From positions 30,001 through 62,000 of the forward strand of contig JBMSAQ010000015.1 of NCBI GenBank assembly GCA_049414405.1: 32,000 nt of DNA. Reading direction: 5' to 3'. Made by a program: the position numbers and the translations under genes. This document shows positions 544 through 23,770 of the stretch, in pieces. Source of the DNA: Candidatus Nanopusillus sp. GTDB lineage: Archaea; Nanobdellota; Nanobdellia; Nanobdellales; Nanobdellaceae. The notes beneath the pieces are model-generated. The model saw nothing but the letters and a program-made list of their open reading frames with translations, was not told where the DNA came from and did no database searches. Position 1 is the first letter of the stretch. Each line of letters starts with the position of its first letter.

Positions 544-569
544 AAAATTTATCTATATAAAAAATATTT

Positions 570-1664
570 TTATTCCTTATCTTCCCTCTTCTTTCCTACG
601 AAGTATATGTCATATAAACCAGTGCCCAAATATATTGGTTGATTCATTATGACATTATCTATTCCACTCAATACTTTATCAGACTGTCCTATTATCGAAG
701 ATTTAACAAATATAGAAACTGGTGTTTCGAATGCTGCTTTTGATAATGTAGATTCTTTTTCTGCATGTAATCCATATCTATTTATACCTAAATATATACC
801 ATACCATGTCAACATATCTGCTACCAACATAAAATGTCTTACATTTACACTAAGACCTTGTTGCTCATATAATCCAACCAATTCTTGTAATATAGCAGCC
901 CTAGTAGCTTCTATCCCAAAAACTCTCTCTATTTCTCTTAAATCGTTCGTATATACTTTTGTATAATCTACTTCCGGTATTTTCATAACTTCCAATAAAT
1001 TAGATCCAACAGTATATATTACATATTCATTATCCTCTTTATGTATAGTTACATCCTTAATTCCCTTAATTCCTTTTATTAGTATTTTCTTTATCATTTC
1101 TTTAAACAAGTATAATTCCCTAGCAGATAATTTTGGAGCAGTTATGTATATATTTTGTTTGTCATTTTCAACCTTGTATTTCTTTATTTTCTTTTTTAAT
1201 ATTTTAAATACTTCATCAAATGTTAATTCTTCTTTTTTCAATTTTTCTTTATCCAAACTAATTATTATTTTATTTTCAAATACGTCTAACGTTATTGACA
1301 ATAATATATCTTCTAATAATAGTTCTCTTATCCTTTTTGCAACACTTTGAGCCACATTCAAATCATTTTTATATTCATCCAATAACCTTATTATCATATA
1401 TTTTCTTTTCATCTTCTTTTTTGCATCGGTTATTTCTGTAATTCTAGGTAAACCCAAAGAAACCTGCTGAGCAGAGATGCCTACAAAGTGGAATGATCTC
1501 AATATCATTTGCGTAGTTGGTTCCGCAATTGATTGTGCAGCAACTATTCCAACAGGTTCTCCCGAATCTATTATAAATTTATATGAAAAATCTTCTATAA
1601 CTTTCCTTAACTTTTCATCTTCTGTTTTTTCTAGATCCTTTTTTATTTTTTCTGGAAGTTCCAT
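570..1664 (-). CDS. rpoA2: DNA-directed RNA polymerase subunit A'' (Rpo1C)
   Basis: Carries conserved motifs of the C-terminal part of the largest RNAP subunit (GEPVGIVAAQSIAEPTTQM, GIEATRAAILQEL, VNVRHFMLVADMLT). It follows rpoA'. Confidence 0.95.
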   Translation of the reverse strand: MELPEKIKKDLEKTEDEKLRKVIEDFSYKFIIDSGEPVGIVAAQSIAEPTTQMILRSFHFVGISAQQVSLGLPRITEITDAKKKMKRKYMIIRLLDEYKNDLNVAQSVAKRIRELLLEDILLSITLDVFENKIIISLDKEKLKKEELTFDEVFKILKKKIKKYKVENDKQNIYITAPKLSARELYLFKEMIKKILIKGIKGIKDVTIHKEDNEYVIYTVGSNLLEVMKIPEVDYTKVYTNDLREIERVFGIEATRAAILQELVGLYEQQGLSVNVRHFMLVADMLTWYGIYLGINRYGLHAEKESTLSKAAFETPVSIFVKSSIIGQSDKVLSGIDNVIMNQPIYLGTGLYDIYFVGKKREDKE

Positions 1665-6089: not shown

Positions 6090-6090
6090 T

Positions 6091-7608
6091 TTATTTTTTT
6101 ATATCTGAAATATTTTTAACTATTGATCTTAATCCAATATCCCCCAATTTCTTAATTAATTCGCGCTTATCAACCTCCTCAAAACTTATCTTCGCCAGAA
6201 TTGTTTTATTTTTTCTCAATCCAGTTTCATGACCTTCGGGTGTTTCTATTAAATCTAACCTACCCCAGTGTGTACCATGAGCCATTCTTGCTTCCAACAA
6301 CTCAGCTTCACCAGATATTGAAGAAACAACCCTTGTTAAATGAGATAAAACAGAAATTTTATTTGTTCTATCTAGAGCTTGAGAAATTCCAGTCCTATTT
6401 CTTGTCCATTTTCCAATAGCCATTACATTTTCAAATCTCTCAGTAAATATTTTTGATCTAAATATAGATGTATATGTGGGTATTTTTCCTCTTTTTACTA
6501 ATCTTTCATATTGATACATTGCATCTGTCATCAACGTTCTTAAAGTAACTAAGAAAAATTCTCTTAATAATTCTCCAGGTGTTCTAACTATTTTGTTTGC
6601 AAAGTGATCCTTTATATCTTCACCAATCTTTCCATGAGCTAATAATAATATCTTTCTTGCCATCTTCAATAAATTGTATGCCTTTAATAATCTATCATTT
6701 GGTGATGTACCAATATTTGGTAATAGTAAATTATCTAATATTGACAATAATTTTTCTCTTTTAACTTCTGGAGATCCTGTTAATTTCAATTTATCGGCTA
6801 AATAAGTTATTGCATCTTCAGAAGTTCTAATATTTTGAAATTCTAATAAGTTAATATATACTTCTTCAAACTCTTCTCCTTCTGAAATCAATTGGTTTAT
6901 TTCAACATCCTTTTCTAAGCCTAAAGCCCTTACCAGTGGTATTAGAGGAACTCTTTTATATTTCTCAAATGATAAGTATAATAAACCATCTTTTGTCATC
7001 TCCATTCTATGAGCCTTTAATTGAGTTAAAGATTCGGATAACAAATATCCACTATATTTTATAGAACCGGACTCTTTTTGAACATAAAATTTATTTGTAC
7101 CAAGTTCTTCAGATAGTACAATTAATTTTTCATTCCCATTAATAATAAAATACCCGCCCCTATCTGTCGGATCTTCTCCAATTTTTATTAATTCTTCTTC
7201 AGATAATCCATAAGTATTACAATATTTTGATCTAATCATTATTGGCAATCTTCCAATAGATACTTGGTATTTACTCTTAAAAGTCTCATTTTCATATACA
7301 GAAAATTCCATAAATACTGTTCCAGCGTATGTAAGTCTTCTAATTCTAGCCTCTATTGGATATATTAATCTAGAAACTCCCTCCTTTTCCATAAAATCTG
7401 CCTTCCCCAACCATAATTTTTCTATTTTAAATTGCAAATCCCTTAATCCAGGAGCTAATAATCTTGGGGAAAATTTCCCCAAATCTCTTCCAATCTTTGT
7501 CATTTCTACATCAACAAAATATTCAAATGACCTAAGTTGTACTCCTAAGAGCTCATTTTCCTCCAAGTATTTATAAAATAAGATATAATTATCTGTATTA
7601 TTAGCCAC
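6091..7608 (-). CDS. rpoB2: DNA-directed RNA polymerase subunit B'' (Rpo2N, N-terminal half of subunit B)
   Basis: RLTYAGTVF, GRLPIMIRSKYC, DRGGYFIINGNEK, and THWGRLDLIETPEGHETGL. Its stop (6091-6093) lies 1 nt before the rpoB' ATG. Confidence 0.95.
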   Translation of the reverse strand: MANNTDNYILFYKYLEENELLGVQLRSFEYFVDVEMTKIGRDLGKFSPRLLAPGLRDLQFKIEKLWLGKADFMEKEGVSRLIYPIEARIRRLTYAGTVFMEFSVYENETFKSKYQVSIGRLPIMIRSKYCNTYGLSEEELIKIGEDPTDRGGYFIINGNEKLIVLSEELGTNKFYVQKESGSIKYSGYLLSESLTQLKAHRMEMTKDGLLYLSFEKYKRVPLIPLVRALGLEKDVEINQLISEGEEFEEVYINLLEFQNIRTSEDAITYLADKLKLTGSPEVKREKLLSILDNLLLPNIGTSPNDRLLKAYNLLKMARKILLLAHGKIGEDIKDHFANKIVRTPGELLREFFLVTLRTLMTDAMYQYERLVKRGKIPTYTSIFRSKIFTERFENVMAIGKWTRNRTGISQALDRTNKISVLSHLTRVVSSISGEAELLEARMAHGTHWGRLDLIETPEGHETGLRKNKTILAKISFEEVDKRELIKKLGDIGLRSIVKNISDIKK

Positions 7609-7640
7609 TTTTTATGTATATGTATGATATTCTTATAAGC

Positions 7641-7955
7641 TTAATCCTCAACAACAACTCTATAGTATATTTCTTCCCCAATCCATGGGTTGTTTCTTAT
7701 AATCTTAACTACATCCCCTGGCTTAACATTTAAGTTTTTTAATGCAGGATCTGAGATTTTAATCTTTGGTAAATCTGATAGAGATGCTTTATATTTTTCT
7801 AATAATTCTTTTTTCTCTTCTTCAGATAATATTACGTGTTTTGGTACTAAATAGTGTTTTGTTATATCAATTTCCGATAGTTCTCTTAAACTCTTTTTAG
7901 GTTCATTAACCTTAGAAACTTTTTTAGATTTAGACTTTTTGACGGATTTGGCCAT
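7641..7955 (-). CDS. rpoH: DNA-directed RNA polymerase subunit H (Rpo5) with a Lys-rich N-terminal extension
   Basis: Core [22 protein letters not shown]...[12 protein letters not shown]...GDVVKIIR matches archaeal RpoH. It is the first gene of the rpo cluster. Confidence 0.85.
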
Positions 7956-7977
7956 TTAATTAATTTTTATAAAAAAC

Positions 7978-7983
7978 TTATAA
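7978..7983. promoter_or_regulatory. Palindromic TATA-like hexamer TTATAA at the exact midpoint of the 50-bp divergent rpoH / ATP-grasp intergenic region
   Basis: The hexamer centre (7980.5) is 25.5 nt from both start codons (7955 minus, 8006 plus). This fits archaeal TATA placement for leaderless transcripts in both directions. AT-rich background makes chance occurrence plausible. Confidence 0.3.
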
Positions 7984-8005
7984 CTTTACCCTCTAGATAT
8001 TAAGA

Positions 8006-8857
8006 ATGGGTGGAATAGCTATATTTGCAAAAACTAATTCACATGATTATAGGATAATAAAGTTAAAAGAAGAAATAAAAAACTATAATAATATTAATAT
8101 TATTGATATAGAGAAAGACAATATATTTCCATATAATGAAAAAATATTAAACTATGACGTATATTACTTTTTCCTTGGATCAAATTTTTTATCTGATATA
8201 TACTTTCTAGCAAGATATCTTAAACAAAATGGAAAAGAAGTAATAAATACCATACACATTAAAGAACCTGTAATATCAAAAACTCTATTTTACAGTATTC
8301 TTAATAAATATGTAGAAATTCCAGAATTTATGAAAATATATTCAATAGATAACATAGAATATGTAATAAATAAAATAGGATTTCCAATAATAATAAAGCA
8401 CCAGTTTGTTCATAGAGGGGAATTCGTACATAAGATAGATAATGAAAAAGAACTATATAACTTTTTAGAAAAATATTTATTAGAGAAGAAAATAAAAATA
8501 AAACATTTAATATTTCAAAAATACATACCTTATGAGAAAGATATAAGAATAATTTTTGTGGGAAAGCCAATTGGTGCAATGGAGAGAATCAATAGAAATA
8601 GTTTTAAGGCAAATATTAGTCAGGGTGGATATGGGAGACAATACGAATTAGATGAAGAGATAGTAGATATTGGATATAGGATTATGGATAAATGTGACTT
8701 ACAAATATTTGCATTTGATCTATTATTAAAAGATGGTCAATATTATTTAATAGACTTGCATCATATATTTCAATATGAGGGATTTGATAAATATTTAAAT
8801 AGAAATGTTACAAGAGAAATATTGAATTACTTAAATGAAATTAGTAATAAAAGCTAA
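8006..8857 (+). CDS. ATP-grasp ligase of the RimK/LysX (alpha-L-glutamate ligase-like) type
   Basis: ATP-grasp signature blocks are present: PIIIKHQFVHRGEFVHKI, IFQKYIPYEKDIRIIFVG, NISQGGYG, and FAFDLLLKDGQYYLIDLH. Substrate is unknown. Confidence 0.7.
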   Translation: MGGIAIFAKTNSHDYRIIKLKEEIKNYNNINIIDIEKDNIFPYNEKILNYDVYYFFLGSNFLSDIYFLARYLKQNGKEVINTIHIKEPVISKTLFYSILNKYVEIPEFMKIYSIDNIEYVINKIGFPIIIKHQFVHRGEFVHKIDNEKELYNFLEKYLLEKKIKIKHLIFQKYIPYEKDIRIIFVGKPIGAMERINRNSFKANISQGGYGRQYELDEEIVDIGYRIMDKCDLQIFAFDLLLKDGQYYLIDLHHIFQYEGFDKYLNRNVTREILNYLNEISNKS

Positions 8858-9242
8858 AGGGCATAAATTAATAAAAGCGACACATAAAAGCACCTTAGAA
8901 ATTACTAAAGACAATTATCTAACAGAAAGAGGAGATTGCATAATCGGTATAAATGCGAACTACTCTGTAAAAGATTTACCAGAGGATCTTAAAGATCATA
9001 TATTAAATGAAGGAAAAATAAAGATTGTAATTAAGATTGATGATTTAATAGACAGTATAATTGCTTATGGTTCGAGAAATTTATTATTAACAAATGATAG
9101 AAGTATTGTTATAAGAAAAAGTAATTATATTGATGATAGAACCTTAGCAATAAACTCAAATAAAAGTGCTACTGATATTGATAAGAAACTAATTGAAAAA
9201 TTAAGGTGTGAAAAAGATATGGAATTCATTATATATTACTGA
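8835..9242 (+). CDS. DUF371-like archaeal protein
   Basis: KAKGHKLIKATHKSTLEITKDNYLTERGDCIIGINA resembles, from memory, the DUF371 N-terminal signature (GHxNIxATHxTTxExTKDxxLTxRGDCIIG). It overlaps the upstream gene by 23 nt. Confidence 0.55.
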   Translation: MKLVIKAKGHKLIKATHKSTLEITKDNYLTERGDCIIGINANYSVKDLPEDLKDHILNEGKIKIVIKIDDLIDSIIAYGSRNLLLTNDRSIVIRKSNYIDDRTLAINSNKSATDIDKKLIEKLRCEKDMEFIIYY

Positions 9243-9248
9243 AAAACA

Positions 9249-9256
9249 TTTATAAA
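9249..9256 (+). promoter_or_regulatory. Candidate TATA box (TTTATAAA) for the 9280-20713 operon
   Basis: The octamer centre is 27.5 nt upstream of the ATG at 9280. It is preceded by purine-rich GAAAAACA, which is BRE-like. This implies a leaderless or near-leaderless mRNA. Confidence 0.45.
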
Positions 9257-9279
9257 GAATAAAATATTTATCCATAATT

Positions 9280-10038
9280 ATGAAAAGAAGGGGTATAGAC
9301 ATGGCTGTACAGTTGATATTCGTAATAATAATAATGTTGGTAGTAGCAGTTATTGTAATTAGGCTATTTCAGCAACAATCATCAAATATTAGCCAAATAT
9401 CAAATACACAAATACAACAGGCAGTTGCTAATTGTTTAAACTATTGTCAAGATCCAGTAACATTCTGTACAAGATATGAAAACATTGGAAATGGAATTGT
9501 ACAAGTAAGTCCTGGGTATTATGTTTGTTCAAATGCAGTTCCATGTAGTGTAGTATTACAATTATATGGAGGTCCCTCTAGTCAATGTCACTATCAAGGA
9601 TATCCAATAACACCGTTGGCATGTATGTATTTAACATGTCAACATTACATTGATAGATTATATTATACTCCGGTACAAGCAACAAGTTATGTATTTGGAA
9701 ATTATTCTTCTACTACATCATTTAATGTAGAAACTGGACAAGCGACGATTTACATTTCTTCTCCATCCCAAATATTATACCCAGGTCCAGCACAATGTTC
9801 TGCACAATTACCAACATGGATTACAAACCAAGTATTTATTGCACTGTTAAAAGTTCTTAATTACTATAATAGTGCACATGGATGTAATTTAAACTTAGTA
9901 GTCAGTAATGGAATATTAGTAGTAACGGGAAATTGTGCAGCATTGGGTATAAATAATAATAATGGTATGCCATTATGCCAATTCTTGATGAGAGTACCAT
10001 ATAATCAGTTAATTAACACACCAGCCACAACAAGTTAA
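9280..10038 (+). CDS. Secreted or anchored cysteine-rich protein with a prepilin-like N-terminus (operon gene 1)
   Basis: MKRRG-IDMAVQLIFVIIIMLVVAVIVI is a basic leader followed by a hydrophobic helix. The ectodomain has 12 Cys and several N-x-S/T sequons. I recognise no homolog. Confidence 0.6.
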   Translation: MKRRGIDMAVQLIFVIIIMLVVAVIVIRLFQQQSSNISQISNTQIQQAVANCLNYCQDPVTFCTRYENIGNGIVQVSPGYYVCSNAVPCSVVLQLYGGPSSQCHYQGYPITPLACMYLTCQHYIDRLYYTPVQATSYVFGNYSSTTSFNVETGQATIYISSPSQILYPGPAQCSAQLPTWITNQVFIALLKVLNYYNSAHGCNLNLVVSNGILVVTGNCAALGINNNNGMPLCQFLMRVPYNQLINTPATTS

Positions 10039-10043
10039 AGGTA

Positions 10044-12014
10044 ATGAATTTTTTTGAACGTTTTTACAATAATTTTAATTTAATAAAATTAAAAGCTCCC
10101 AATCCTATATATAAAAAATATGCATTTCATTTATGGTTAAATAGATTAAATACTAATCCCGATAATATATTTTCTTCTGTAATAACTCTAATAATATTAT
10201 CTATAATCATATATCTTATTTTAAGTTTTGTAAGCTTTCAATTAGCTTTTTCTTTATTAATATCTTTACTAATATTATCATTCTATTTCGCATATTATCC
10301 AATATTCTATACACAAATTGTTAGAATACAGGTAACGTCAGAAATTGTATGGATAATATTATATTTATCTTTATATCTAAAGAGAAATCCCAATCTAGAA
10401 AATGGAATAAAATATGTAGCATATTATATGAAAGGTTATATTGCAACAGACTTTAAATCATTATTATATAATTTAGAAACAAATAAGTTTAAGGATATTG
10501 AATCAGCACTAGAATATTATCAAAGAAGATGGTTTTATTTAAGTCCAGATTTTGTATATGCAATGACACATATTGTAAATATTAAATATAAAACGTCTAT
10601 TGATGATATAAATAAATTATTAGATAGAATATTGGGATGGGTATTAAAGAAATCTTTAGAAAAATCCCAACTATATGTAGATGCTCTGAAAGAACCAGCA
10701 ACAGTTATCATATCTTTCTTAGTAATGATGCCTATAGTCAGTTTGATGATGTTACCAATAATATCTGTGTTTTTGTTAAATACTGTAAGTTTTTATTTCA
10801 TAGCATTTTCATATATAATAATTCTACCTGTCATTACATTCTTAATAATTCAAAATTTTCTATCGAAAAATCCATTTGCATTTGCTGTTCCAGATTTATC
10901 ATTAGCAAAGGATTTACCAAAACCTGGAAAATTTAAATTAGGAAATAAAGAAATTCCGGCAATAATAATTTCAATAATATTGGGATCAATTGCAATTATG
11001 GGAATTTATCATTTAATTTCTTTAGCTATAAAAATTGCTCTTATCCCACAAGGATTTTTAAGTGATTATTTAAATATAGTTTACCAAGATAGAGCATTAA
11101 TATATTCGGTTTTAACTTTAACATTACCCCTGGGATTGGGTTTAGGTATAGGATCTTATTATTATCTGACATCTTTCCAAAAAGTTAAAAAAATATATGA
11201 AATTGAAGAAATAGAAAATGAGTTTCCAATTGTTGTATATGAATTTGCATCACTATTAGAAGATGGTTATCCGTTTGAAATAGTAATTGAAAAAACCTAT
11301 TATAATTATAAGATAATAAAATCTTCCGGAGTTTTGGAAAACTTCTTAAAAACAACACTATATAATTTAAGAAGGGGATATGATTTAAATACATCTATAT
11401 TTAATCCAAAAATTGGTTCATTAAATTTATATCCATCAAAGTTAGTAAGAGAGTCTATGCAACTTTTAGTCACTTCTGCATCAAAGGGTCCTGAAGCTTT
11501 ATCAAAAATTGCATATAATGTATCAACAAATTTAGAAAATGTAAACAATATAAGATATAATGTAAGAAAAATATTAAATGAAATAATTGGATTAATAGAT
11601 ATGACATCAAGAAATCTAGTACCATTAATTTCTGCAATGGTTACAGTTTTTAATAATGGTATAGTTTCAATGCTTTTTGCACTTGCATATTTCTTTCAAT
11701 TGATAAGCCAATCTTTTGGTCTGGGGGGTGGATCTAATTTATTCAATTTTATTGTAACCACATTTAATCTATATAACCTAATACCACCAACATTTTTTGT
11801 AGCAATAATAGGTATATTTTTTATAGAATATGTAATAATAACATCATATATGAGTGCTGGAATAAGATATGGCTTTGATAGTACAATGACTTCATATTAT
11901 ATAGGTAGAAATCTTCTGTTTGGAACAATATTTTATGTAACATTTTCAATAATAGGAATATTAGTAGTATACACAATGTTCGGCCCATATCTGCCAACAA
12001 ATATACAACTATGA
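10044..12014 (+). CDS. Polytopic membrane protein, candidate FlaJ/TadC/PilC-like (T2SS-F-like) platform protein (operon gene 2)
   Basis: About 10 predicted TM helices are arranged as two repeats, each a soluble helical domain of about 100-150 aa followed by TM helices (aa ~113-217 and ~379-525). The second domain begins EFPIVVYEFASLLEDGYPFEIVIEK, which resembles the T2SS-F domain. Assigned by pattern only. Confidence 0.45.
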   Translation: MNFFERFYNNFNLIKLKAPNPIYKKYAFHLWLNRLNTNPDNIFSSVITLIILSIIIYLILSFVSFQLAFSLLISLLILSFYFAYYPIFYTQIVRIQVTSEIVWIILYLSLYLKRNPNLENGIKYVAYYMKGYIATDFKSLLYNLETNKFKDIESALEYYQRRWFYLSPDFVYAMTHIVNIKYKTSIDDINKLLDRILGWVLKKSLEKSQLYVDALKEPATVIISFLVMMPIVSLMMLPIISVFLLNTVSFYFIAFSYIIILPVITFLIIQNFLSKNPFAFAVPDLSLAKDLPKPGKFKLGNKEIPAIIISIILGSIAIMGIYHLISLAIKIALIPQGFLSDYLNIVYQDRALIYSVLTLTLPLGLGLGIGSYYYLTSFQKVKKIYEIEEIENEFPIVVYEFASLLEDGYPFEIVIEKTYYNYKIIKSSGVLENFLKTTLYNLRRGYDLNTSIFNPKIGSLNLYPSKLVRESMQLLVTSASKGPEALSKIAYNVSTNLENVNNIRYNVRKILNEIIGLIDMTSRNLVPLISAMVTVFNNGIVSMLFALAYFFQLISQSFGLGGGSNLFNFIVTTFNLYNLIPPTFFVAIIGIFFIEYVIITSYMSAGIRYGFDSTMTSYYIGRNLLFGTIFYVTFSIIGILVVYTMFGPYLPTNIQL

Positions 12015-12295
12015 AACTTCAAAATTCAATATATTGGATTACAATAACCTTTATATTAATTGTAGCTGCTAGTCTATTTTCTTTTTATTATATTTATAAC
12101 ATAAAAAATAGTTTAGATGGAGAAAATATACAGACTATTAGCTGTCAACAATTAAAAAATCTATACAATAAGAGTTTTCGAGAAATAATCGATATTAAAG
12201 TATTTCTTAGTGAAAATTGTACAATAAATGGAATAACAATACCTTCCGGCTATAGAATTATATATATTTATAACGGAAGTATTCATTATATATGA
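12011..12295 (+). CDS. Small pilin-like protein (operon gene 3)
   Basis: MKLQ-NSIYWITITFILIVAASLFSF N-terminus, 2 Cys, and ATGA overlaps at both ends. Confidence 0.6.
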   Translation: MKLQNSIYWITITFILIVAASLFSFYYIYNIKNSLDGENIQTISCQQLKNLYNKSFREIIDIKVFLSENCTINGITIPSGYRIIYIYNGSIHYI

Positions 12296-12771
12296 AGAAC
12301 GATATAGCAATAGATACTATATTTATAATAATAATAGCGATAATATCTGCTGTAGCTGTATTGAGTATTATATATACAAAATTCTTTAGTAATTCTCAAG
12401 CATATTATTGTCAAACATTAATATCACAAGGTGGCTTTTCCCCATCATGCAAAGAATATTATCCTTCTGCAATAAATGTTATATACTCAAATGAGAGTAT
12501 TGATACAATTTATTCAAGTATAGTGGGATTAATATTAAATTGCTACAACAATAATGTAAATACAAATAAGTTATTTGATATATGTTATGATGTTTATATA
12601 AATAGGAATATTGTCTTAAATTCGGCAACATTAATTCAATATGTACAAAATTATACTAAATTTAATCCAAATAAAATTATATTCCGTTTAAATAATAGTG
12701 AAGGGAAGATATACCCATACAACAGCATATTTATAATATACAACAATAGTTATATTATAATATGGCAATGA
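12292..12771 (+). CDS. Small pilin-like protein (operon gene 4)
   Basis: MKND-IAIDTIFIIIIAIISAVAVL N-terminus, 4 Cys, and an ATGA overlap with the upstream gene. Confidence 0.6.
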   Translation: MKNDIAIDTIFIIIIAIISAVAVLSIIYTKFFSNSQAYYCQTLISQGGFSPSCKEYYPSAINVIYSNESIDTIYSSIVGLILNCYNNNVNTNKLFDICYDVYINRNIVLNSATLIQYVQNYTKFNPNKIIFRLNNSEGKIYPYNSIFIIYNNSYIIIWQ

Positions 12772-13175
12772 GAATTCAAGAGCTTCCGATTAATTATACT
12801 TTTTTAATCTTTATTGGAATAATTGTTACATTAACAATTATAGGAATAATATTTGTATTAAGAGGAAACATATCTTCTTACATAAATAACATAATGCCAA
12901 AATACAATACTACACAGACTGTAGTAGAAACAAATGTAAATTCAATGACAACTGTCGCAATGAATGTAGTATCATGTTATTATAAAAAAGCCCAAGGTCT
13001 CTGTTATTTGATTCATTATCAAGGATCACCATTTACATGTCAAGATTTAATAAATAGAGTAAATAGCATAGATCCAAATGTTGTAATGCAAAATTGTAAT
13101 TATAATATAAACCCTGGAAAGTATATATTAATTTATTCGGCAGGAAATTATGTCTACATTAATATTCAAGGATAG
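12762..13175 (+). CDS. Small N-terminally anchored, pilin-like protein (operon gene 5); the likely true start is the ATG at 12768
   Basis: N-terminal hydrophobic helix (YTFLIFIGIIVTLTIIGIIFVL) and 4 Cys. The second Met at 12768 forms an ATGA overlap with the upstream stop. Confidence 0.55.
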   Translation: MAMRIQELPINYTFLIFIGIIVTLTIIGIIFVLRGNISSYINNIMPKYNTTQTVVETNVNSMTTVAMNVVSCYYKKAQGLCYLIHYQGSPFTCQDLINRVNSIDPNVVMQNCNYNINPGKYILIYSAGNYVYINIQG

Positions 13176-13177
13176 AG

Positions 13178-13618
13178 ATGGAGAAGTGGTTTTGGATAAT
13201 TATAACAATTGTTGCTTTTGGTTTATCTTTATATTTATATTTTAAATTTGTAGGCATAAATAATGAGACTCAATTATTATATAAAAATATATCTTCATGT
13301 CAAAATTTATATACAACAGTTGAAAGAGCGTGCTATTCCAATAACGGAACAGAATTTTATATTACTATTGAAATAAATAAATATCTAGATTATATATATA
13401 GTAATGGTAATTTACTAAGTTGTTACATATATGACAGATATTATAATTATACAGTACCTTGTAATGTAATAATAAATACAACTAATAATATGATTCAATA
13501 TTATACTTCTGGATTATTTTATGAATTGTCACGTGGAAGTCCCAATCAAAAAATACCTTTGCTTGTTAAAAAAACTTCCCCAACAGATGTAACAATTTAT
13601 ATAGAAAAACCAGGTTAA
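13178..13618 (+). CDS. Small N-terminally anchored protein (operon gene 6)
   Basis: MEKWFWIIITIVAFGLSLYLYF N-terminal helix, 4 Cys, and a 2-nt gap from the upstream gene. Confidence 0.55.
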   Translation: MEKWFWIIITIVAFGLSLYLYFKFVGINNETQLLYKNISSCQNLYTTVERACYSNNGTEFYITIEINKYLDYIYSNGNLLSCYIYDRYYNYTVPCNVIINTTNNMIQYYTSGLFYELSRGSPNQKIPLLVKKTSPTDVTIYIEKPG

Positions 13619-13654
13619 AAATTTTAAAAATTTTTTAGATATTAATAGATCATA

Positions 13655-15157
13655 ATGAAAAAAAATCAGTTAAATTTACTCTCAGTAGCAATAATGTTAT
13701 TAATCGTATCATTATCTTTCTTAATTTATTATCAATACTCTACAAATGTTAAAAGGGAACAAGAAAAATTTATATTTGAAATTTTTGTCAATAATTTACA
13801 AAATTTACAGGATACGATAAGTAATATGCAAGGTACATATTATATAAAAGTTGATATACCAAGCGGGATTATATTATATTCGAGAGATGACGAATTAATA
13901 ATCCAATATAATAATAATAATTATACAATTAATTTTCAAAATAAATCTGTAATTTTATACAATAATGGTCAAAATGTAAGTTTTCTATATCCAAATAATT
14001 ATATATATTTGATTAGTACAAATAATATTGTTTTTATTTCTGCAGATTTTAATGATACAATTTTCTTATTTAACCGATATTTACCTAATGGAACTATTAT
14101 AATTATAAATCCAGATAATAATCAAAATAATAACAATAATCAAAATCAGAATAATAATCAAACTAATCAAACTAATAACACCAATCAAACAAATAATACT
14201 ATTGACCCAAATAGTAGATGTTTAGTTAAATATACTGGACAACCAAAATTTTTCTGGGGTAATGTAAATGGAAATAATTATTTACCTCCAATAGGTGATC
14301 AAGGAGTTTGTGGAAGTTGTTGGGCATTTGCATCTGCAAATGGGATTGCTGCAGTTTATATGATAAGAAATAACAAACCTAACGAAGGATTAACACTATC
14401 TGCCGCATACATGGCAATAAAGTGCAATAGAGGTTATCCAAATACTCCAAGATATTGTGAGTATAATATGGGTTGTAATGGTGGTTGGCCATATTTAGGT
14501 ATATTATATACATCTCAATATGGTATACCAGCAGATCCGGGACGGGCACATTATAGTTCTACTTTAAAAAGATGCAATACAGGTGCTACTAGTTATCCTG
14601 GTAATGTATGTGGTTTTGATTATAACGGACCTACTTCACCAATGTATTATTCACACAGAGTTATGGAATTAGTTCAAAGAGAAAAACCCTTATCAAGTCC
14701 AGAAATAATTCAATATTTGCTATGCTATGGACCATTAACTGTTGGTGGCTTTATGGCTGGACGGGGGGGATCTAACCCAAACAAATATCCTTCAAATTTT
14801 GTAGAAACCACAGGTCATGCTATGCTGTTGGTTGGATATGATACACAGTCCCAACTATGTCAAGAAGTATATGGAACTCCAAAATGTTGGATAATTGCAA
14901 ATTCTTGGGGAACTATAACAGGATGCTTAGCTTTTACTTCAGATGGTAGAATGCGCATGATAACTCGTAGTAAAAGTGAGTGCTATAAATATTATTCAAA
15001 TTATCAAGCTTGCAGCGCTGCAATGGGAGCACCTTGTGGAGGGATTTATTGGTCACAAAACGGATATCTATATGTACCATTTGAACAGTCACCATTTGGC
15101 ATATCATTTCCCAAGTTTACAATAGTAGCAATACAAAATGTTACTCTCGCAAAATAG
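13655..15157 (+). CDS. N-terminally anchored papain-family (MEROPS C1A-like) cysteine protease (operon gene 7)
   Basis: The complete catalytic signature is present. GDQGVCGSCWAFAS supplies the oxyanion Gln and the nucleophile Cys222 (codon 14318-14320). TGHAMLLVGYD supplies His388 (codon 14816-14818). WIIANSWG supplies the Asn. The N-terminus has a MKKNQ leader plus TM helix, then a domain of about 120 aa, then an N/Q/T linker. Confidence 0.85.
   Translation: MKKNQLNLLSVAIMLLIVSLSFLIYYQYSTNVKREQEKFIFEIFVNNLQNLQDTISNMQGTYYIKVDIPSGIILYSRDDELIIQYNNNNYTINFQNKSVILYNNGQNVSFLYPNNYIYLISTNNIVFISADFNDTIFLFNRYLPNGTIIIINPDNNQNNNNNQNQNNNQTNQTNNTNQTNNTIDPNSRCLVKYTGQPKFFWGNVNGNNYLPPIGDQGVCGSCWAFASANGIAAVYMIRNNKPNEGLTLSAAYMAIKCNRGYPNTPRYCEYNMGCNGGWPYLGILYTSQYGIPADPGRAHYSSTLKRCNTGATSYPGNVCGFDYNGPTSPMYYSHRVMELVQREKPLSSPEIIQYLLCYGPLTVGGFMAGRGGSNPNKYPSNFVETTGHAMLLVGYDTQSQLCQEVYGTPKCWIIANSWGTITGCLAFTSDGRMRMITRSKSECYKYYSNYQACSAAMGAPCGGIYWSQNGYLYVPFEQSPFGISFPKFTIVAIQNVTLAK
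14156..14200 (+). repeat. Five consecutive in-frame N-x-T codon triplets (NQT NQT NNT NQT NNT), a 9-nt periodic microrepeat inside an Asn/Gln-rich linker (14117-14200)
   Basis: Read directly from the sequence: AATCAAACT AATCAAACT AATAACACC AATCAAACA AATAATACT. Confidence 0.85.
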
Positions 15158-16001
15158 AAATTTATTAGCACCTATTATAATTATTTTTATAATTTTTTTG
15201 TATATTGTATATTCTATGAATATTATATATTCTATGAAGAATCCAATAGCAGTTTATTGTGAATATGGAGGAGGAACTTATTATACAAATGATACTGGTT
15301 CTTATTGTATTATAAATAATACATATTTTGATGCTCTACAATATTATGAAAATAATGTACCTCCAGAATATTCCTTTTGTACCCATCATGGATTAATATA
15401 TGTAAATAGCAGTTATTGTAAATATCCAAATGGTACATTAGTTAGTCCATATCTATTAATTCCCCCATCCGCATATCAAGATGTAATTATACCAGAGGAG
15501 AATCTTACATTGTGTGATAATCTGTTAGATTGTTCAAATACTCCATGGTATTATCCACCATGTTCTAATCAAATTTACCCTTGTTTTGATCCTCCATATA
15601 TACCACCTTCTTACTTAGCAGGTAATGATTCTTATCAGCAACTATTGTCATACTACCGTAATTTTTATGGCTGTGGCTATTGTCCAGAGAGTTTATCTTT
15701 CCAAGGTAACTGGTTCAGATGTCCGTACAATTATTCATTAAATCAATTATATCAAGAATTTCTACAAAAATGTCCACCACCAAGTATTGTTTATATTTCT
15801 TGTACTGGCGTATTTGAATGTATAAATCAAACTGAAATGAATTTAACAAATAATCTTACAAATAATAATCAACAATTAATTTATCCACAACCAAATATAA
15901 GTACTAATAACAACAATAACGTTAATTTGATTTTACCAACAGCAATGGTTATAATTATAGTAATAATAGGCCTATTTATGTTATTATATTATCTAAAATG
16001 A
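15138..16001 (+). CDS. Cys/Pro-rich surface protein with a DUF333-like N-terminal motif and TM helices at both ends (operon gene 8)
   Basis: KNPIAVYCEYGGGTYYTNDTGSYCIINNTYFDALQYY resembles the DUF333 pattern NPAxxYCxxxGG...G..C...W. It has 14 Cys and a C-terminal anchor (ILPTAMVIIIVIIGLFMLLYYLK). It overlaps the protease gene by 20 nt. Confidence 0.5.
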   Translation: MLLSQNRNLLAPIIIIFIIFLYIVYSMNIIYSMKNPIAVYCEYGGGTYYTNDTGSYCIINNTYFDALQYYENNVPPEYSFCTHHGLIYVNSSYCKYPNGTLVSPYLLIPPSAYQDVIIPEENLTLCDNLLDCSNTPWYYPPCSNQIYPCFDPPYIPPSYLAGNDSYQQLLSYYRNFYGCGYCPESLSFQGNWFRCPYNYSLNQLYQEFLQKCPPPSIVYISCTGVFECINQTEMNLTNNLTNNNQQLIYPQPNISTNNNNNVNLILPTAMVIIIVIIGLFMLLYYLK

Positions 16002-17626
16002 AAAATCAAATAAATACTATAACCTTTGTTATTATAATTTCAATAATATCATTGTCAGTTCTATTATATATTTTAATATCAAGTGACTACAATCAAAAAA
16101 CAATGCAAACATATAATGTAGAAAATCAATACACACTAACAATCCAGAATAGTATTGTTTTATTATCATATATTGATGATAATAAAGTTAACTTATCCTA
16201 TGCATTTTTATTATCTTATTTTTCATCTTCTGGAAATGATACATACTGCATAAATCGAAATATATGTACGAATATATCACAAACCATAACAAATTACTTT
16301 AATAGTATATACGGAAATAGATGGAACTTTACAATATATTTTGTACCACCAGTAACTGGCTGGATCGTTCAGATGTTTGTAGTGGCCGGTAATATAAATA
16401 ATTGGGATCCATGTTCAATGAGACCTCCACCAGATCAAAATGGCAAACAATGGTATGAATGGGATTATACGTATTTCTTTACAAATAATTATGTACAGAA
16501 TATTGATATACCAGTAAGACTGACTATATATGGAGCTGGATGGGTTAATGCAACAGCACCCTTCCATCAAACATTATCAACAAATTCTTGGGGATTACAA
16601 TCATTTTATCCACAACAATCACAAGCAATAGCTATACAATTAGGATATTGTGAACCTCTATCAAGAATATTTCCAAATTATAATTTTAATGAAGCTTCTG
16701 TATATTGTCCAAATAGTGAATGGCATTTATTTCCAAATTTTTTGGGTGTAGGTGGTGTACCAGCCCAACCAGTATCTAACTTACCAAATTTCTTTTCCGG
16801 ATTCTTATGCATATATACAGGATCTTGTCCGGTAACTAACAATCAATATTTAACCTCCACACCTTATTATTATCAAGGTCCTCCCGTTTATAAAACTGCC
16901 ACTGACATAAATAGACTAGCAGATTCTATAATCCCAAGAGAATATTTAGATGCAGCATGCCAACAAATGTTTGGTACAAGATATACGGGTAATTCTCTTT
17001 GTGGGGGTGGTCAAGTTTTAGTTGTAGGATCTTTTTACAGAGGTGTAGCAAATATACCACCACATTGTCAACAAATATTCATAGATTACCCATGGCATGA
17101 AACAATAGCTTTATATATATCCTACATAAATAAAAATGGACAACCAGATTATGTATTTTTAGCAGCAGATCCTTTGTGTGAATATAAAATAAATGGGAGA
17201 ATAATAAGATGTCCAACTGGTGTATATAATGACATACAAAATATAAACGGAATTATTATTGGAAAAGAATGTCCTTTAGTTTATTTAGGTGGTATTAATA
17301 CATATTCTCAAGGATTTTATAGATTTAATATTACTAAATGGGTAATAAATAATAGGGATCCAAATACAAATCAATTTATAATTTCTGCAGTATATTATGA
17401 TCCACATGCTGGATCAAATGGTGTTGCAATGGCGAGAGCATATTGTATTACTGATACAGGAAACAAAGAAGAATTAAACGCTTATATTTACCAAGGTAGT
17501 CAAAATAGTGTAAGTTTAGGATATCCAATACCACCAAATACAAACATATATGTACATTACATATATTTGCCAGTAAATATGCCTTTTCTAGGCGGATATC
17601 TTGTCGCTAAATTAACAGTATGGTAA
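15998..17626 (+). CDS. Large N-terminally anchored (prepilin-like MKNQ leader) secreted protein of unknown fold (operon gene 9)
   Basis: MKNQ-INTITFVIIISIISLSVLLYILI N-terminus, 14 Cys, and an ATGA overlap with the upstream gene. Confidence 0.6.
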   Translation: MKNQINTITFVIIISIISLSVLLYILISSDYNQKTMQTYNVENQYTLTIQNSIVLLSYIDDNKVNLSYAFLLSYFSSSGNDTYCINRNICTNISQTITNYFNSIYGNRWNFTIYFVPPVTGWIVQMFVVAGNINNWDPCSMRPPPDQNGKQWYEWDYTYFFTNNYVQNIDIPVRLTIYGAGWVNATAPFHQTLSTNSWGLQSFYPQQSQAIAIQLGYCEPLSRIFPNYNFNEASVYCPNSEWHLFPNFLGVGGVPAQPVSNLPNFFSGFLCIYTGSCPVTNNQYLTSTPYYYQGPPVYKTATDINRLADSIIPREYLDAACQQMFGTRYTGNSLCGGGQVLVVGSFYRGVANIPPHCQQIFIDYPWHETIALYISYINKNGQPDYVFLAADPLCEYKINGRIIRCPTGVYNDIQNINGIIIGKECPLVYLGGINTYSQGFYRFNITKWVINNRDPNTNQFIISAVYYDPHAGSNGVAMARAYCITDTGNKEELNAYIYQGSQNSVSLGYPIPPNTNIYVHYIYLPVNMPFLGGYLVAKLTVW

Positions 17627-18825
17627 AAAAACAAGATAAAATTTTATTTCTTTTATATCTATTAATATTCTTATTTTTTACTTTTGATAGTAAATTTGAT
17701 ATAAATGTAATTATCTTTGGTACAATATACCTATTCTTATTATCTTTTATATTAAAAAATTCAAAGAATACTTCTTTGATATATAAGTCGGTATTCTTAC
17801 TTATACCAATTATAATTTTTGGAACTCTCTATTATCAAGATTGGCCCTTATTAGCACGTTTATCGCTTGGTCTTGCAATAAATTATTGGCTATTTTACTT
17901 TATAGCATTTGCTCTAGGATATTATTTATTTGAAAATAATTTTTATATTTCAAAAAAATCTTTGATATTTTATGTACTTTCTTTAGTTTTATTTATAATA
18001 TTATTTTTCCTTGAAATAGTAATCAACGTTATAACCATGGATTTAGAAGTAGCAACAGGACCTATAGTCGGTTCGGTCATTAACTTTGCATTATCAAATT
18101 TTTATACTTTCAAAATATTATATTCAACTTTGTTTATTGTATTTGCTATATTTCTATTTCTAGTTATACGTTTTAATAGAAATGAAATACTTATAGTAAG
18201 AACAAAAATATTCAAGAAGTTGTCAGAAATTTATAAATATAAAAAGTATATATTTTTATCAATATTTTTTATTATAATAATACAACTTATTATTGCTATA
18301 TATGGATTATCATTCTATAGTAATCTAGCTTCAGAAAGTTTAATTGTAAAATATCAAATCACTGTATATAAAGCTCTTATACTTTTATCAATATTTGAAT
18401 TTATTATTTATTTTTTAATTTATAAGAGCATGAAAAACGATCATTTCACAAATTATTTCTTATTATTTACCATGGTTTTAATAATATTCTTTGGTGCATT
18501 ATTCACATCGTACAAAGATTTTGCTTCTTATGCCATACATACAAGATATCTTATGGCTGTGATATTTTTCTTCATGGGAATGCATTATAAACTATTTAGT
18601 AATGTTAAAAAACCAATTAAAAAAGCCATTGGTATTACAATTGGAATATTACTTCTAATACAAGTTATAATTGGAGAACTGCTCGAATTTGCAGTATATG
18701 GAGGTCCCCCATTAAGTATATTAGCTATACCAAATATAATGAAAATACTTGGCATAATACATGGACCAGTGGTAACAATACTCATATTAACACTTATATA
18801 TCTTCATGTTAAGTTAGAAATATGA
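17620..18825 (+). CDS. Polytopic integral membrane protein of unknown function (operon gene 10)
   Basis: About 10-12 hydrophobic helices across 401 aa, with no recognisable catalytic motif. The start overlaps the upstream stop (ATGGTAA). Confidence 0.6.
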   Translation: MVKKQDKILFLLYLLIFLFFTFDSKFDINVIIFGTIYLFLLSFILKNSKNTSLIYKSVFLLIPIIIFGTLYYQDWPLLARLSLGLAINYWLFYFIAFALGYYLFENNFYISKKSLIFYVLSLVLFIILFFLEIVINVITMDLEVATGPIVGSVINFALSNFYTFKILYSTLFIVFAIFLFLVIRFNRNEILIVRTKIFKKLSEIYKYKKYIFLSIFFIIIIQLIIAIYGLSFYSNLASESLIVKYQITVYKALILLSIFEFIIYFLIYKSMKNDHFTNYFLLFTMVLIIFFGALFTSYKDFASYAIHTRYLMAVIFFFMGMHYKLFSNVKKPIKKAIGITIGILLLIQVIIGELLEFAVYGGPPLSILAIPNIMKILGIIHGPVVTILILTLIYLHVKLEI

Positions 18826-20057
18826 GAAATCAAACAGAAAGTATTTATGTAGTTCTATTTTTAACAGTTTCTATATTGATAATTCTTCTATCTTTTTATG
18901 CGCTAACATATAGTTACAATCAGAATGTTGTTTTTGGTAGATTTACATCTTTATCGACTTTATCAAACTACCTTTTAGGATATTTACAAACAGCATTAAC
19001 ACAAGAAGGTTATGCAAAATCTTATGTAGCAGGAACAAGTGGTTGGGGAAAAGAAAACTGGGCCTCTTTTCCTCCTCAGTGCATATTACCACAACCATGT
19101 GAAAATGCAATTCAATATTACAATAATTTGATAACTTCTGGATTTACAAGCTTAATAAGTTATGGAGAACAATATTTATTTGCATATAGGTACTATCATC
19201 CGTATAATATATCTTTCAATTTCTCAAACAATTATCGAGCTGGTCTTCTAGGAACCTGTGATGACGTTGTTTCTGGAAGATATAATTATAGTTTTCCCAT
19301 TTATGTTCAGGGAGTATATATAAATATTACCGGACCTTCTTCTGGTTCAATAATCCCCTATGCATCAACATCAAATATAACGAACAATCCAGCATTTTAT
19401 TTATATAATTTAGCATATCAATTTTCTTTAGAAGAATTTCCAGAATGTTCCTTTCAAGATTGTGTAAATACATTATTTAATAGCGGTCCAACCGACAACT
19501 GTGCAAGAAGATTTGAACAATTCTCAAATAATCCAGATATTAAATGTAATGAAACAATAATCCCACATGAATGTGTAGATATTCCGTTATGTAAGATATG
19601 TTTATATCCCAGAGCAATTGCCTGTAGAGTAATATTAAAATGTTCTGACAATCGATATAATGTATATTTTAATGGGAATGCATATCCGCAATCCATAGCT
19701 ATTACTTCAATAGTTTTTTATGAAAATGTAACAAACAAGTATTATCTAAATTGTATATATAAATGTGTTGGAATATACAATGAAACAAATAAGACAGCGA
19801 TATCGAAAAGTTGCACATTACAAGATCAACAATATTCATGTTCCCCAATATATGGATGTGGTGATGTAAGCATAAGTAGGAAAGATTCAAAAATAATATT
19901 TACATTCCCATATTATTATTCAATTCCAGTTGAATGTTATATGTGTATAATCGGTGGAGAAGAATGTCCAGTATGTTTGCCCGGACAATGTCCTAACAAC
20001 CCAACATGCCCAGAAACAATACCATTCCCAGAGGAATGTATAGAAGATTATCTCTAA
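18822..20057 (+). CDS. Large cysteine-rich (24 Cys) N-terminally anchored secreted protein (operon gene 11)
   Basis: MRNQ-TESIYVVLFLTVSILIILLSF N-terminus and a C-terminal Cys cluster (ECYMCIIGGEECPVCLPGQCPNNPTCPETIPFPEEC). ATGA overlap with the upstream gene. Confidence 0.6.
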   Translation: MRNQTESIYVVLFLTVSILIILLSFYALTYSYNQNVVFGRFTSLSTLSNYLLGYLQTALTQEGYAKSYVAGTSGWGKENWASFPPQCILPQPCENAIQYYNNLITSGFTSLISYGEQYLFAYRYYHPYNISFNFSNNYRAGLLGTCDDVVSGRYNYSFPIYVQGVYINITGPSSGSIIPYASTSNITNNPAFYLYNLAYQFSLEEFPECSFQDCVNTLFNSGPTDNCARRFEQFSNNPDIKCNETIIPHECVDIPLCKICLYPRAIACRVILKCSDNRYNVYFNGNAYPQSIAITSIVFYENVTNKYYLNCIYKCVGIYNETNKTAISKSCTLQDQQYSCSPIYGCGDVSISRKDSKIIFTFPYYYSIPVECYMCIIGGEECPVCLPGQCPNNPTCPETIPFPEECIEDYL

Positions 20058-20065
20058 TATGAAAG

Positions 20066-20713
20066 ATGAAAGGACAATTTTCTATAGTATTTATAACAAT
20101 ATTAACTGTATTATTTTTATTAGGTATGGTGCTTTTATTAGCAATATTTTCTAGCATTAATTTAACAAATTATAAAGAGCAAACTTCTTTTTCATATCAA
20201 CAAAAAATAATATACAGCCTATTTTCTCCAAATTGTATAGGATATCCAAATTATCCAATATACTTTACAACAATGGAAAAAATAAGACAATTCAATCAAA
20301 CATATTATAATATGCTTCCAAATTGTACAATATTTCCTTATACATTTAGAGCAGAAATTGGTAATTATAGTTTTGGAATTATAAATTTTAATGGAAATTG
20401 TAATACGCATACGTATCCAATTTCAGTATATTATTCTTTAGATTATATCAAATTAACCATATGTAAAAATTATTATTCAGACTTTTATTATTTCTTATAT
20501 AGTTTTTGTTTGAGTGATAAAAATATTTCAAATCAAACTTTTGTATTTCTATTTCCAACAAATTTATCTGGAAATATTACATGTACAGAAAATACAAATG
20601 GAAATATTATATGTAATTACATACCATGTTATTCAGTAAATAATATTACATTTTATCAACTTGTAACAGTATATGTAAAAAGAATTAATCAAACACATTT
20701 CATGATTGCATAG
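20066..20713 (+). CDS. Pilin-like protein with a canonical class III signal (operon gene 12)
   Basis: MKG-QFSIVFITILTVLFLLGMVLLLAIF matches the archaeal prepilin pattern [KR]-G followed by Q and a hydrophobic stretch. It has 8 Cys and many N-x-S/T sequons. Confidence 0.65.
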   Translation: MKGQFSIVFITILTVLFLLGMVLLLAIFSSINLTNYKEQTSFSYQQKIIYSLFSPNCIGYPNYPIYFTTMEKIRQFNQTYYNMLPNCTIFPYTFRAEIGNYSFGIINFNGNCNTHTYPISVYYSLDYIKLTICKNYYSDFYYFLYSFCLSDKNISNQTFVFLFPTNLSGNITCTENTNGNIICNYIPCYSVNNITFYQLVTVYVKRINQTHFMIA

Positions 20714-23479: not shown

Positions 23480-23770
23480 ATGAACGATATTGTCGCAATA
23501 ACTTATGGTTTATCATTCTTAGTAGGATATTTATCAGCAGATTATATAATTAAAAAATTTTCGCCAGAATTATTTATTGAAATTAAAACACAGACAAAAA
23601 AATATAGGACAAAAATCCATCATGTATATTTATCAATAATCGGGATGTTAACATATTTATATGAATTATATGTATTAACATCTTTGTTTCTCGGTGCTGC
23701 AATTCATGATGCAATATTAGAAATAAGAAAGAAGTTAAAAAAATTAGATTATATTAAGCAAAATAAATAA
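23480..23770 (+). CDS. Small membrane protein (2-3 TM helices), unknown function
   Basis: 96-aa ORF with hydrophobic segments (IVAITYGLSFLVGYL, VYLSIIGMLTYLYELYVLTSLFLGAAI). Its 3' end overlaps the convergent surface-protein gene by 27 nt. Confidence 0.45.
   Translation: MNDIVAITYGLSFLVGYLSADYIIKKFSPELFIEIKTQTKKYRTKIHHVYLSIIGMLTYLYELYVLTSLFLGAAIHDAILEIRKKLKKLDYIKQNK

Follow-up and report, generated by a model that had tools for sequence, protein, structure and literature searches.

Members of the Nanopusillaceae and Nanobdellota live as obligate ectosymbionts and pierce both the membrane and the very robust surface layer (S-layer) of Sulfolobales-type hosts. Cryo-electron tomography (cryoET) of strain YN1 reveals an attachment organelle of cone, portal and filament that pierces the host envelope, and its components and breaching mechanism are stated as unknown (PMC11420986). 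Thermopsin-like and pectin-lyase-like surface proteins of Nanobdella aerobiophila have been proposed to degrade the host S-layer (bioRxiv 10.1101/2023.10.27.564410). Here, we describe a locus of Candidatus Nanopusillus sp. that is a concrete candidate for envelope breach: a pilus-type operon conserved across the clade, which includes a tethered papain-family protease with intact catalytic residues as its fastest-evolving gene. The stretch analysed, hereafter the window, comprises 32,000 nucleotides (nt) of GenBank assembly GCA_049414405.1 (contig JBMSAQ010000015.1, positions 30,001 to 62,000), and nucleotide coordinates below refer to it unless another locus is named. The protease gene is a complete open reading frame (ORF) at 13655..15157 (+) with an ATG start and a product of 500 amino acids (aa), identified from the ORF itself, Pfam, orthologues and prior annotation.

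The papain family (MEROPS C1A, PF00112; cathepsins C, B, S, K and L, and papain) shares with the window protease its fold and the Gln-Cys...His...Asn-Ser-Trp order of catalytic elements, and the disulfide-forming cysteines of the CGSCW and GCNGG motifs are kept in the window enzyme. Unlike these enzymes, the window protease lacks both the I29/ERFNIN propeptide and the cathepsin-C exclusion domain; it has probably about seven disulfides rather than three, a Cys-rich insertion and an N-terminal membrane-anchored carrier. It is 16-22% identical to solved papain-family structures and lies on a long monophyletic branch. Uncharacterised prokaryotic fusions of DUF333 to Peptidase_C1 (P0041, P0042, P0044, P0049 and P0081) are its highest-scoring relatives outside the family and have the closest average distance. 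C1 and DUF333 domains occur together in both systems, including a YS[FY]CA extension. In the fusions, the pairing is in cis, as signal peptide-DUF333-C1, whereas in the window it is in trans: the DUF333-like domain belongs to a C-terminally anchored protein encoded by the next gene, and the N-terminal slot of the protease is held by a pilin-like carrier.

Modular type IV pilins provide a second comparison. Raynaud et al. 2021 (PMC8179133) described such pilins, including S. sanguinis PilB and PilC, and predicted pilin-S74 and pilin-M26 peptidase fusions. They resemble the window protein in combining a helix and beta head with a bulky C-terminal module, and in being encoded at a type IV filament locus, which in the window would be of a derived kind. 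The described modular pilins are bacterial and carry a class III signal (IPR012902, with Gly at position -1 and Glu5), whereas the window protein comes from an archaeon, has no Gly at -1, finds no match among pilin families and bears a C1A module. For archaeal TadC systems, Makarova et al. 2016 (PMC4858521) named arCOG01814 "Pilus assembly protein TadC, subclade 4F" and reported that the machinery occurs in nanoarchaea, with pilins unidentifiable there. The window operon has a membrane protein, o2, that belongs or relates to the same TadC group; its locus differs from those systems in having neither ATPase nor prepilin peptidase, in its degenerate MK.Q... leaders and in its protease, since no protease component is described there. 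The surface proteins of N. aerobiophila share the proposed role of a glycosylated, membrane-anchored hydrolase acting on the host envelope. They are aspartic (thermopsin) enzymes with a C-terminal anchor and immunoglobulin-like repeats, encoded outside a TadC operon, whereas the window enzyme is a cysteine (papain) peptidase with an N-terminal pilin-like carrier.

Catalytic domain, carrier module and linker

The papain-fold catalytic domain occupies aa 189-500 (14219..15154, +). The Pfam profile Peptidase_C1 (PF00112) matches aa 208-443 with 76.8 bits (E 3.3e-21; cutoff 20.7), and the match spans profile positions 12-210 of 220. The catalytic residues occur in the order Gln, Cys, His and Asn of family C1A: Gln216, the oxyanion-hole Gln equivalent to papain Gln19 (codon 14300..14302, +); Cys222, the nucleophile (14318..14320, +); His388, the base (14816..14818, +); and Asn416, which orients the catalytic His (14900..14902, +). 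The motifs that contain them start at aa 214 (GDQGVCGSCWAF), aa 387 (GHAMLLVGYD) and aa 414 (IANSWG). Cathepsin C (3pdf_A) is the best solved structure by sequence (E 4e-10), and in the alignment with it the four residues fall on the NQ..CGSC, NHA and NSWG motifs. Counted over 44 orthologues, Cys222 and His388 are conserved in all 44, Asn416 in 43 and Gln216 in 42. An AlphaFold model of the full protein, built from 58 sequences, has a predicted local distance difference test score (pLDDT) of about 90 or higher over aa 190-500 and a two-lobed papain fold, for which Foldseek returns cathepsins S, K, V, B and C (probability 1.0, TM-scores of 0.70-0.75 normalised to the target). Alignments and model, whose agreement is far beyond chance, indicate that residues 189-500 are an intact clan-CA/C1A peptidase without a propeptide, and the domain is predicted to be catalytically competent as a cysteine endopeptidase. 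A dipeptidyl peptidase of the cathepsin C kind was considered and rejected: although cathepsin C is the best match in the PDB, its exclusion domain (PF08773) was not found.

All 15 Cys of the protein lie within aa 189-461. The 14 that are not catalytic are near-invariant among orthologues and probably form seven disulfides in the catalytic domain, a pattern consistent with an extracellular enzyme that relies on disulfides for stability in a hot, acidic habitat. The Cys-rich insertion, of about 40 aa, follows the NSWG motif (aa 420-462). The start of the domain is confirmed by the corresponding protein of strain YN1, in which homology begins at Cys189, seven residues before an FFWG motif. The I29-type (ERFNIN/GNFD) propeptide marks the cathepsin-L-like subgroup and not the C1A family as a whole. 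Neither the query nor any of its roughly 40 orthologues has an I29 match in Pfam (PF08246), whereas the eukaryotic C1 matches carry one. A preliminary description of the gene, made from its letters alone, had read it as an intact papain-family protease with every Cys in the protease domain and no obvious I29-type prodomain. The Pfam and structural comparisons place it inside C1A and clan CA, with catalytic motifs aligned to those of cathepsin C, and the reading holds on all three points.

In one subclade (P0038 and P0039), Thr or Ser stands in place of the oxyanion-hole Gln, and Phe in place of the Trp177 equivalent. Cys, His and Asn are kept in these sequences, whose activity may be altered or weakened.

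The catalytic domain is preceded by a module of aa 1-146 (N-module; 13655..14092, +), an autonomous carrier with the size and layout of a pilin. It opens with the basic leader MKKNQ, followed by a hydrophobic stretch of about 22 residues. Modelled alone (AlphaFold, pLDDT 87.7), the module forms a single alpha-helix of about 56 residues (aa 3-57; delimited as aa 2-57 when both models are considered), of which the first 25 or so are hydrophobic, and then an eight-stranded beta-domain (aa 62-129) and a short helix; this is the long N-terminal alpha-helix with small beta head of the pilin layout. Many positions are invariant in the alignment, including Gln5, Asn7 and an IYYQY motif. The ratio of non-synonymous to synonymous substitution rates (dN/dS) is 0.10-0.16 over aa 1-57 and 0.09-0.29 over the whole N-module. 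Such strong constraint, together with the invariant positions, argues that the helix stays part of the mature protein, where a signal peptide would be discarded. Among 1.8 billion representative proteins, a profile search retrieved only about seven relatives of the N-module, which comprise its own family, a more divergent fusion (P0124, 436 aa) and stand-alone proteins of 141 and 142 aa, themselves of pilin size. Similarity to other proteins of the operon is weak and restricted to the N-terminal helix. The N-module appears pilin-like in layout and context, and may be a degenerate pilin.

Strain YN1 (locus L010, AP031373.1) presents the same parts in another arrangement. Its protease, of 579 aa, has at its N-terminus the module of o6, which in the window is a separate 146-aa N-terminally anchored protein (13178..13618, +), followed by an extra segment of about 140 aa, a Pro/Ser linker and the C1 domain. 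The match to o6 covers aa 1-144 at 58% identity (E 3e-59), and the C1 domain is 41% identical to the window protease from Cys189 onward (E 3e-76). The N-module is encoded in YN1 as a free-standing 141-aa gene, two positions downstream of the protease gene and between two o8/DUF333 paralogues; the genes of this region lie at 5417-7156, 7153-8004, 8001-8426 and 8439-8957 of the YN1 locus. The arrangement looks like a local duplication with recombination that swapped the carrier of the protease. By these alignments, the catalytic domain thus appears to have moved between two carrier modules of one operon, which argues strongly against the N-terminal domain being a propeptide and also argues that N-module, o6 and protease share one physical assembly. 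Such a swap would extend to an archaeon the "modular pilin" principle, which has hitherto been surveyed and described in bacteria.

Carrier and enzyme are joined by an Asn/Gln/Thr-rich low-complexity linker (aa 147-188; 14093..14218, +), with 19 Asn, 6 Thr and 6 Gln among its 42 residues and five clustered N-x-T sequons. The linker is predicted to be disordered (pLDDT 32-36), and its length differs among orthologues. All of the elements that had been described upstream of the protease domain are therefore present: the MKKNQ leader with its membrane helix, the intervening domain (about 120 aa) and the Asn/Gln/Thr linker. Of the 11 N-glycosylation sequons in the protein, ten are in the N-module and linker. 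This distribution, the Lys pair followed by a hydrophobic helix and the constraint on aa 1-57 support extracellular tethering, so that the enzyme is predicted to be exported and held by a conserved helix module through a glycosylatable, flexible linker. The sole sequon of the catalytic domain, N-V-T at aa 495-497 (15137-15145), lies four residues from the C-terminus and is invariant in an alignment of 18 sequences.

Operon, predicted platform protein and probable DUF333 partner

The protease is a fixed member of an operon that is found only in Nanopusillaceae. Gene packing and synteny define 12 genes (o1, o2, o3-o6, the C1 gene and o8-o12; 9280..20713, +), which overlap or stand at most 8 nt apart, except for a 36-nt gap before the C1 gene. 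The operon is flanked by rpoH/rimK/DUF371 and, at the opposite end, by arginase. Nine Nanopusillaceae loci share the same gene order, which is conserved also in the most divergent lineages; over about 12 lineages synteny is strict, and YN1 represents a local rearrangement around the C1 gene. Two to five charged residues, often with a Gln, open ten of the 12 encoded proteins and lead into a hydrophobic helix some 25 residues long; most of the proteins are rich in Cys.

The protein o2, a polytopic membrane protein of 656 aa (10044..12014, +), is encoded by the most conserved gene of the operon (91-97% identity). It has no direct match at E <=0.1 in Pfam or NCBIfam and none in the PDB. An alignment-based search retrieves proteins that are homologous over their full length and 25-28% identical (E 1e-52 to 1e-64, 95-99% coverage), and the homologues P0135, P0136, P0139 and P0140 carry PF00482 (T2SSF) at 26.5-36.6 bits against a cutoff of 25.2. 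PF00482 is the GspF/PilC/TadC/FlaJ platform family. One of these homologues, P0139, is encoded directly downstream of a T2SSE secretion ATPase (locus L014), and beyond it lie small proteins with MKG and MKKG class III leaders, two of which are FlaFind-positive. The o2 orthologue of Candidatus Nanopusillus acidilobi, Nps_00520, is assigned to arCOG01814. From these distant relationships, o2 is a predicted divergent TadC/FlaJ platform, and its homology and arCOG assignment together mark the operon as a probable derived locus of type-IV-filament type. The pilin-like operon proposed in the preliminary description is supported by this platform protein, by the PF00482-bearing homologues and by the T2SSE neighbour. 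The filament ATPase, and the prepilin peptidase if there is one, would be encoded outside the operon. The T2SSE ATPase of L014 (6283-10032 of that locus, 1249 aa) contains an intein with a LAGLIDADG endonuclease domain.

A candidate for the major subunit is o1 (252 aa; 9280..10038, +), which has the only class-III-like N-terminus of the operon, MKRRG/IDMAVQLIF (slash after the leader), with KKRA/ in the most divergent orthologue; it matches no pilin family. The proteins o3, o9, o11 and o12 start with MK.Q, MRNQ or MKGQ, like the ultra-short leaders of L014 and mostly without the Gly. Judged by these starts, proteins of this type may be pilins that are no longer processed, which fits the reported lack of a recognisable prepilin peptidase in nanoarchaea.

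The next gene downstream encodes o8 (15138..16001, +), a type-I surface protein and probable partner of the protease, identified by its ORF and synteny. It overlaps the protease gene, stop codon included, by 20 nt, is syntenic in all loci and is duplicated in YN1. Its N-terminal signal is followed by a Cys-rich ectodomain, which starts with a DUF333 domain and opens with an invariant NPxAVYCEYGGG...G.YC motif, and the protein is anchored by a C-terminal transmembrane segment. The DUF333-like domain (aa 32-87; 15231..15398, +) was recognised by profile comparison. Against Pfam DUF333 (PF03891), o8 itself scores below threshold (17.3 bits where 25 are required, E 0.006, with only positions 1-22 of the 47 in the profile aligned), and sub-threshold matches of this kind recur in seven of nine o8 orthologues. 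Compared by hhalign with the DUF333 of C1-fusion proteins, the o8 family aligns over 47 columns with a probability of 96.5% (E 7e-10), and over 56 columns with 97.5% (E 6e-12) when the subsequent YS[FY]CA motif is included; 60 column-shuffled controls reached 4% at most and nine other operon families 0.6% at most.

The fusion proteins in question are the best relatives of the catalytic domain outside the family, with a signal peptide, DUF333 at aa ~45-90, a spacer of about 90 aa and Peptidase_C1. The recurrence of this pairing, in cis in the outgroup and in trans in the window, suggests from sequence a functional coupling, and points to a general, undescribed partnership between DUF333 and C1 peptidases that would give a first functional lead for a widespread domain. 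DUF333 as a propeptide-like regulator is offered as a hypothesis only; a sequence search finds no solved structure for the domain. Gene contexts of the DUF333 fusions are mixed, with one beside cohesin/dockerin genes and one virus-like. One fusion, on an ENA metagenome scaffold (L016, gene at 5157-6527), sits amid about 30 small, unannotated ORFs on the same strand and a thymidylate synthase gene, a virus- or mobile-element-like context that hints that such peptidases can be mobile.

Proposed function at the host contact and its alternatives

We consider it somewhat better than an even chance (a probability of about 0.55 for the reading as a whole) that the product is a surface-held papain-family enzyme that cleaves envelope proteins at the symbiont-host contact. 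The carrier would place the enzyme in, or beside, a type-IV-filament-like surface apparatus, and the glycosylated linker would let the catalytic domain extend past the cell's own envelope. Targets could be the host S-layer, other surface proteins or the symbiont's own wall. Without a propeptide in cis, control would probably be exerted in trans, most plausibly by the DUF333 protein. A role at the host interface is suggested by the lifestyle, by the attachment organelle seen in YN1 by cryoET and by the fast evolution of the catalytic domain. In comparison with close relatives, no gene of the region has a higher dN than the protease gene; dN/dS is 0.32-0.41 for the catalytic domain and roughly 0.05-0.2 for most neighbouring genes, and selection is still purifying overall. 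Co-cultures exist for N. acidilobi with Acidilobus and for YN1 with Sulfurisphaera, and C1 peptidases have specific membrane-impermeant inhibitors and activity-based probes (E-64, DCG-04), so that the proposal is testable without genetics.

Several observations weigh against this reading. Size and helix/beta-head layout uphold the earlier description of the N-terminus as pilin-like, but the canonical attributes of a pilin are missing: the residue at position -1 before the invariant Gln5 is N, Y, D, L or S, not the Gly or Ala of a class III signal (Gly occurs there only in P0024 among the orthologues); no FlaFind motif is found at the protease N-terminus; Pfam and NCBIfam give no pilin family match for the N-module; and neither sequence search nor Foldseek matches it to a solved pilin. 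At a linker pLDDT of about 33, the model does not define where the N-module lies with respect to the active site. Neither a secretion ATPase nor a prepilin peptidase is encoded within the window, and two nanoarchaeal genomes have been reported to be without a recognisable prepilin peptidase. The search with the o8 family yielded members of the clade only, with no DUF333-annotated intermediates. Overall dN/dS is below 1, and relaxed constraint instead of host-driven diversification could explain the fast evolution. The published N. acidilobi proteome includes RimK but no product of the operon, although glycosylated membrane proteins often escape detection in such data.

The alternative that survives best turns the enzyme on its own side: it would mature Cys-rich proteins of the operon or open the nanoarchaeon's own S-layer for passage of the filament or organelle. 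Strict membership of an operon with nine other N-terminally anchored surface proteins is what such a role would predict, and an S-layer-domain protein is encoded nearby. The tether would be in the producer's own membrane, and detached YN1 cells already bear attachment organelles (PMC11420986). Against this, the catalytic domain evolves about three times faster than its would-be targets, for which an external, variable target is a better fit, and we regard a self-directed role as unlikely, though a real competitor. One form of it, in which the protease is the "missing" nanoarchaeal prepilin peptidase, is rejected by topology: leader peptides are cytoplasmic, whereas the disulfide-rich, glycosylated enzyme is extracellular.

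Cleavage at the host contact can also be cast in a far more specific form, in which the operon encodes the filament part of the nanoarchaeal attachment organelle from derived, uncleaved pilins, the protease, displayed on interchangeable pilin-like carriers, digests host S-layer for filament entry and the DUF333 protein acts as a propeptide or inhibitor in trans. We hold this full scheme to be quite unlikely. If it is true, DUF333 gains its first function, as a regulatory domain of C1 peptidases.

A soluble nutritional enzyme is more doubtful still. The N-terminus would then be a cleaved signal, or the linker would be cut, and the released protease would supply amino acids to an auxotrophic symbiont. 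Nanoarchaea do rely on external amino acids (PMC4935971, PMC11420986), secretion is common among prokaryotic C1A enzymes (PMC10380794), and a long unstructured linker could serve as a shedding site. However, the first 57 residues rank with the best-conserved parts of the protein and continue as one helix into a folded module, the N-module persists as a gene of its own in YN1, and the sequon-rich linker is likely to be protected by glycans. We rate the nutritional role as improbable.

The preliminary description had also raised the possibility that the domain of about 120 aa occludes the active site like a propeptide; a novel propeptide or inhibitor of this kind would block the enzyme until removed. 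In its favour, the domain occupies the slot of an I29 propeptide, ahead of the catalytic domain, and no other propeptide was detected. In YN1, however, the protease has an unrelated module in this place, while the N-module survives as a separate gene. In the window protein the domain is membrane-anchored, is separated from the enzyme by a disordered linker of variable length and is more conserved than the enzyme, and hhalign gives it a probability of 0% against the DUF333 pro-region of the outgroup enzymes. The idea was rejected on these grounds, and we give it very little credence. An inactive papain-fold adhesin (pseudoprotease) that only binds its target is barely credible: substitution of the oxyanion Gln and Trp177 equivalent in the P0038/P0039 subclade would suit it, but full conservation of Cys222 and His388, and of Asn416 in 43 of 44 sequences, in lineages down to 41% identity would be unexpected without catalysis.

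Distribution, origin and neighbouring features

About 40 full-length orthologues of the protease are known at 42-90% identity, the named ones from Candidatus Nanopusillus, Candidatus Nanobsidianus stetteri and other Nanopusillaceae, and search scores fall sharply from E 1e-124 for the orthologues to E 1e-12 for the next relatives. A scan of one genome per GTDB species confines the gene to Nanopusillaceae, including the cultivated Candidatus Nanopusillus acidilobi 7A and Nst1; strain YN1 and two more divergent lineages are additional carriers. The orthologues are named "Peptidase C1A subfamily" or "C1 family peptidase" at NCBI, and Supplementary Data 1 of Wurch et al. 2016 lists the gene as Nps_00495 / Nst1_643 (arCOG03611, one transmembrane domain). 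The protease is not discussed in Wurch et al. 2016, Jarett et al. 2018, the YN1 papers or the Nanobdella papers, and it is unmentioned in the single-nucleotide polymorphism tables consulted. The reservation in the preliminary description, that prior annotation in related archaea would lower the novelty, therefore applies: the protein itself is already annotated and is no new protein. What appears to be new is its obligatory place in a TadC-type operon, its interchangeable carriers, its DUF333 partnership and its candidacy for proteolysis of the host envelope. The accompanying remark that papain-like enzymes are uncommon in archaea is outdated. C1A peptidases occur in all major archaeal groups, including DPANN (Kordis and Turk 2023, PMC10380794), and multidomain prokaryotic forms were left unanalysed in that survey.

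In a rough neighbour-joining tree, a very long branch leads to the family, which is monophyletic (97/100). The DUF333-type enzymes are nearest to it on average and I29-bearing eukaryotic cathepsins farthest, with the sister group not settled. The phylogeny that had been suggested as a check on horizontal acquisition yields no evidence of recent transfer, which is rejected: the long branch is monophyletic, the family is at most 31% identical to anything else, and a donor cannot be named.

The window itself is from a Nanopusillus-type nanoarchaeon, with the archaeal markers split RpoB, RpoA'/A'', RpoH, TFB, LonB and S24e and a GC content of about 27%; no tRNA genes were found in it. Within the operon, o10 (17620-18825) encodes a Cys-free protein of 401 aa with about ten transmembrane helices, no family match and no GxGD motif of the prepilin-peptidase kind; o10 and the protease gene evolve fastest in the operon (for o10, 62% identity and dN/dS 0.46 against N. 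acidilobi). In all genomes examined, the operon is preceded by mutually overlapping genes for a RimK-type ATP-grasp ligase and a DUF371 protein (8006-9242). An ORF of 1422 aa (23744-28012, -) without a Pfam match, at a distance of about 4 kb from the operon, is probably the S-layer protein of the symbiont, from its apparent gene-order match to Nps_00425 of N. acidilobi, which is annotated as "S-layer domain" (arCOG02079). GC skew and AT skew switch sign at about 8 kb, tracking the switch of coding strand, from about -0.3 over the minus-strand RNA polymerase genes (1-8000) to about +0.1 to +0.2 beyond (8000-20700).

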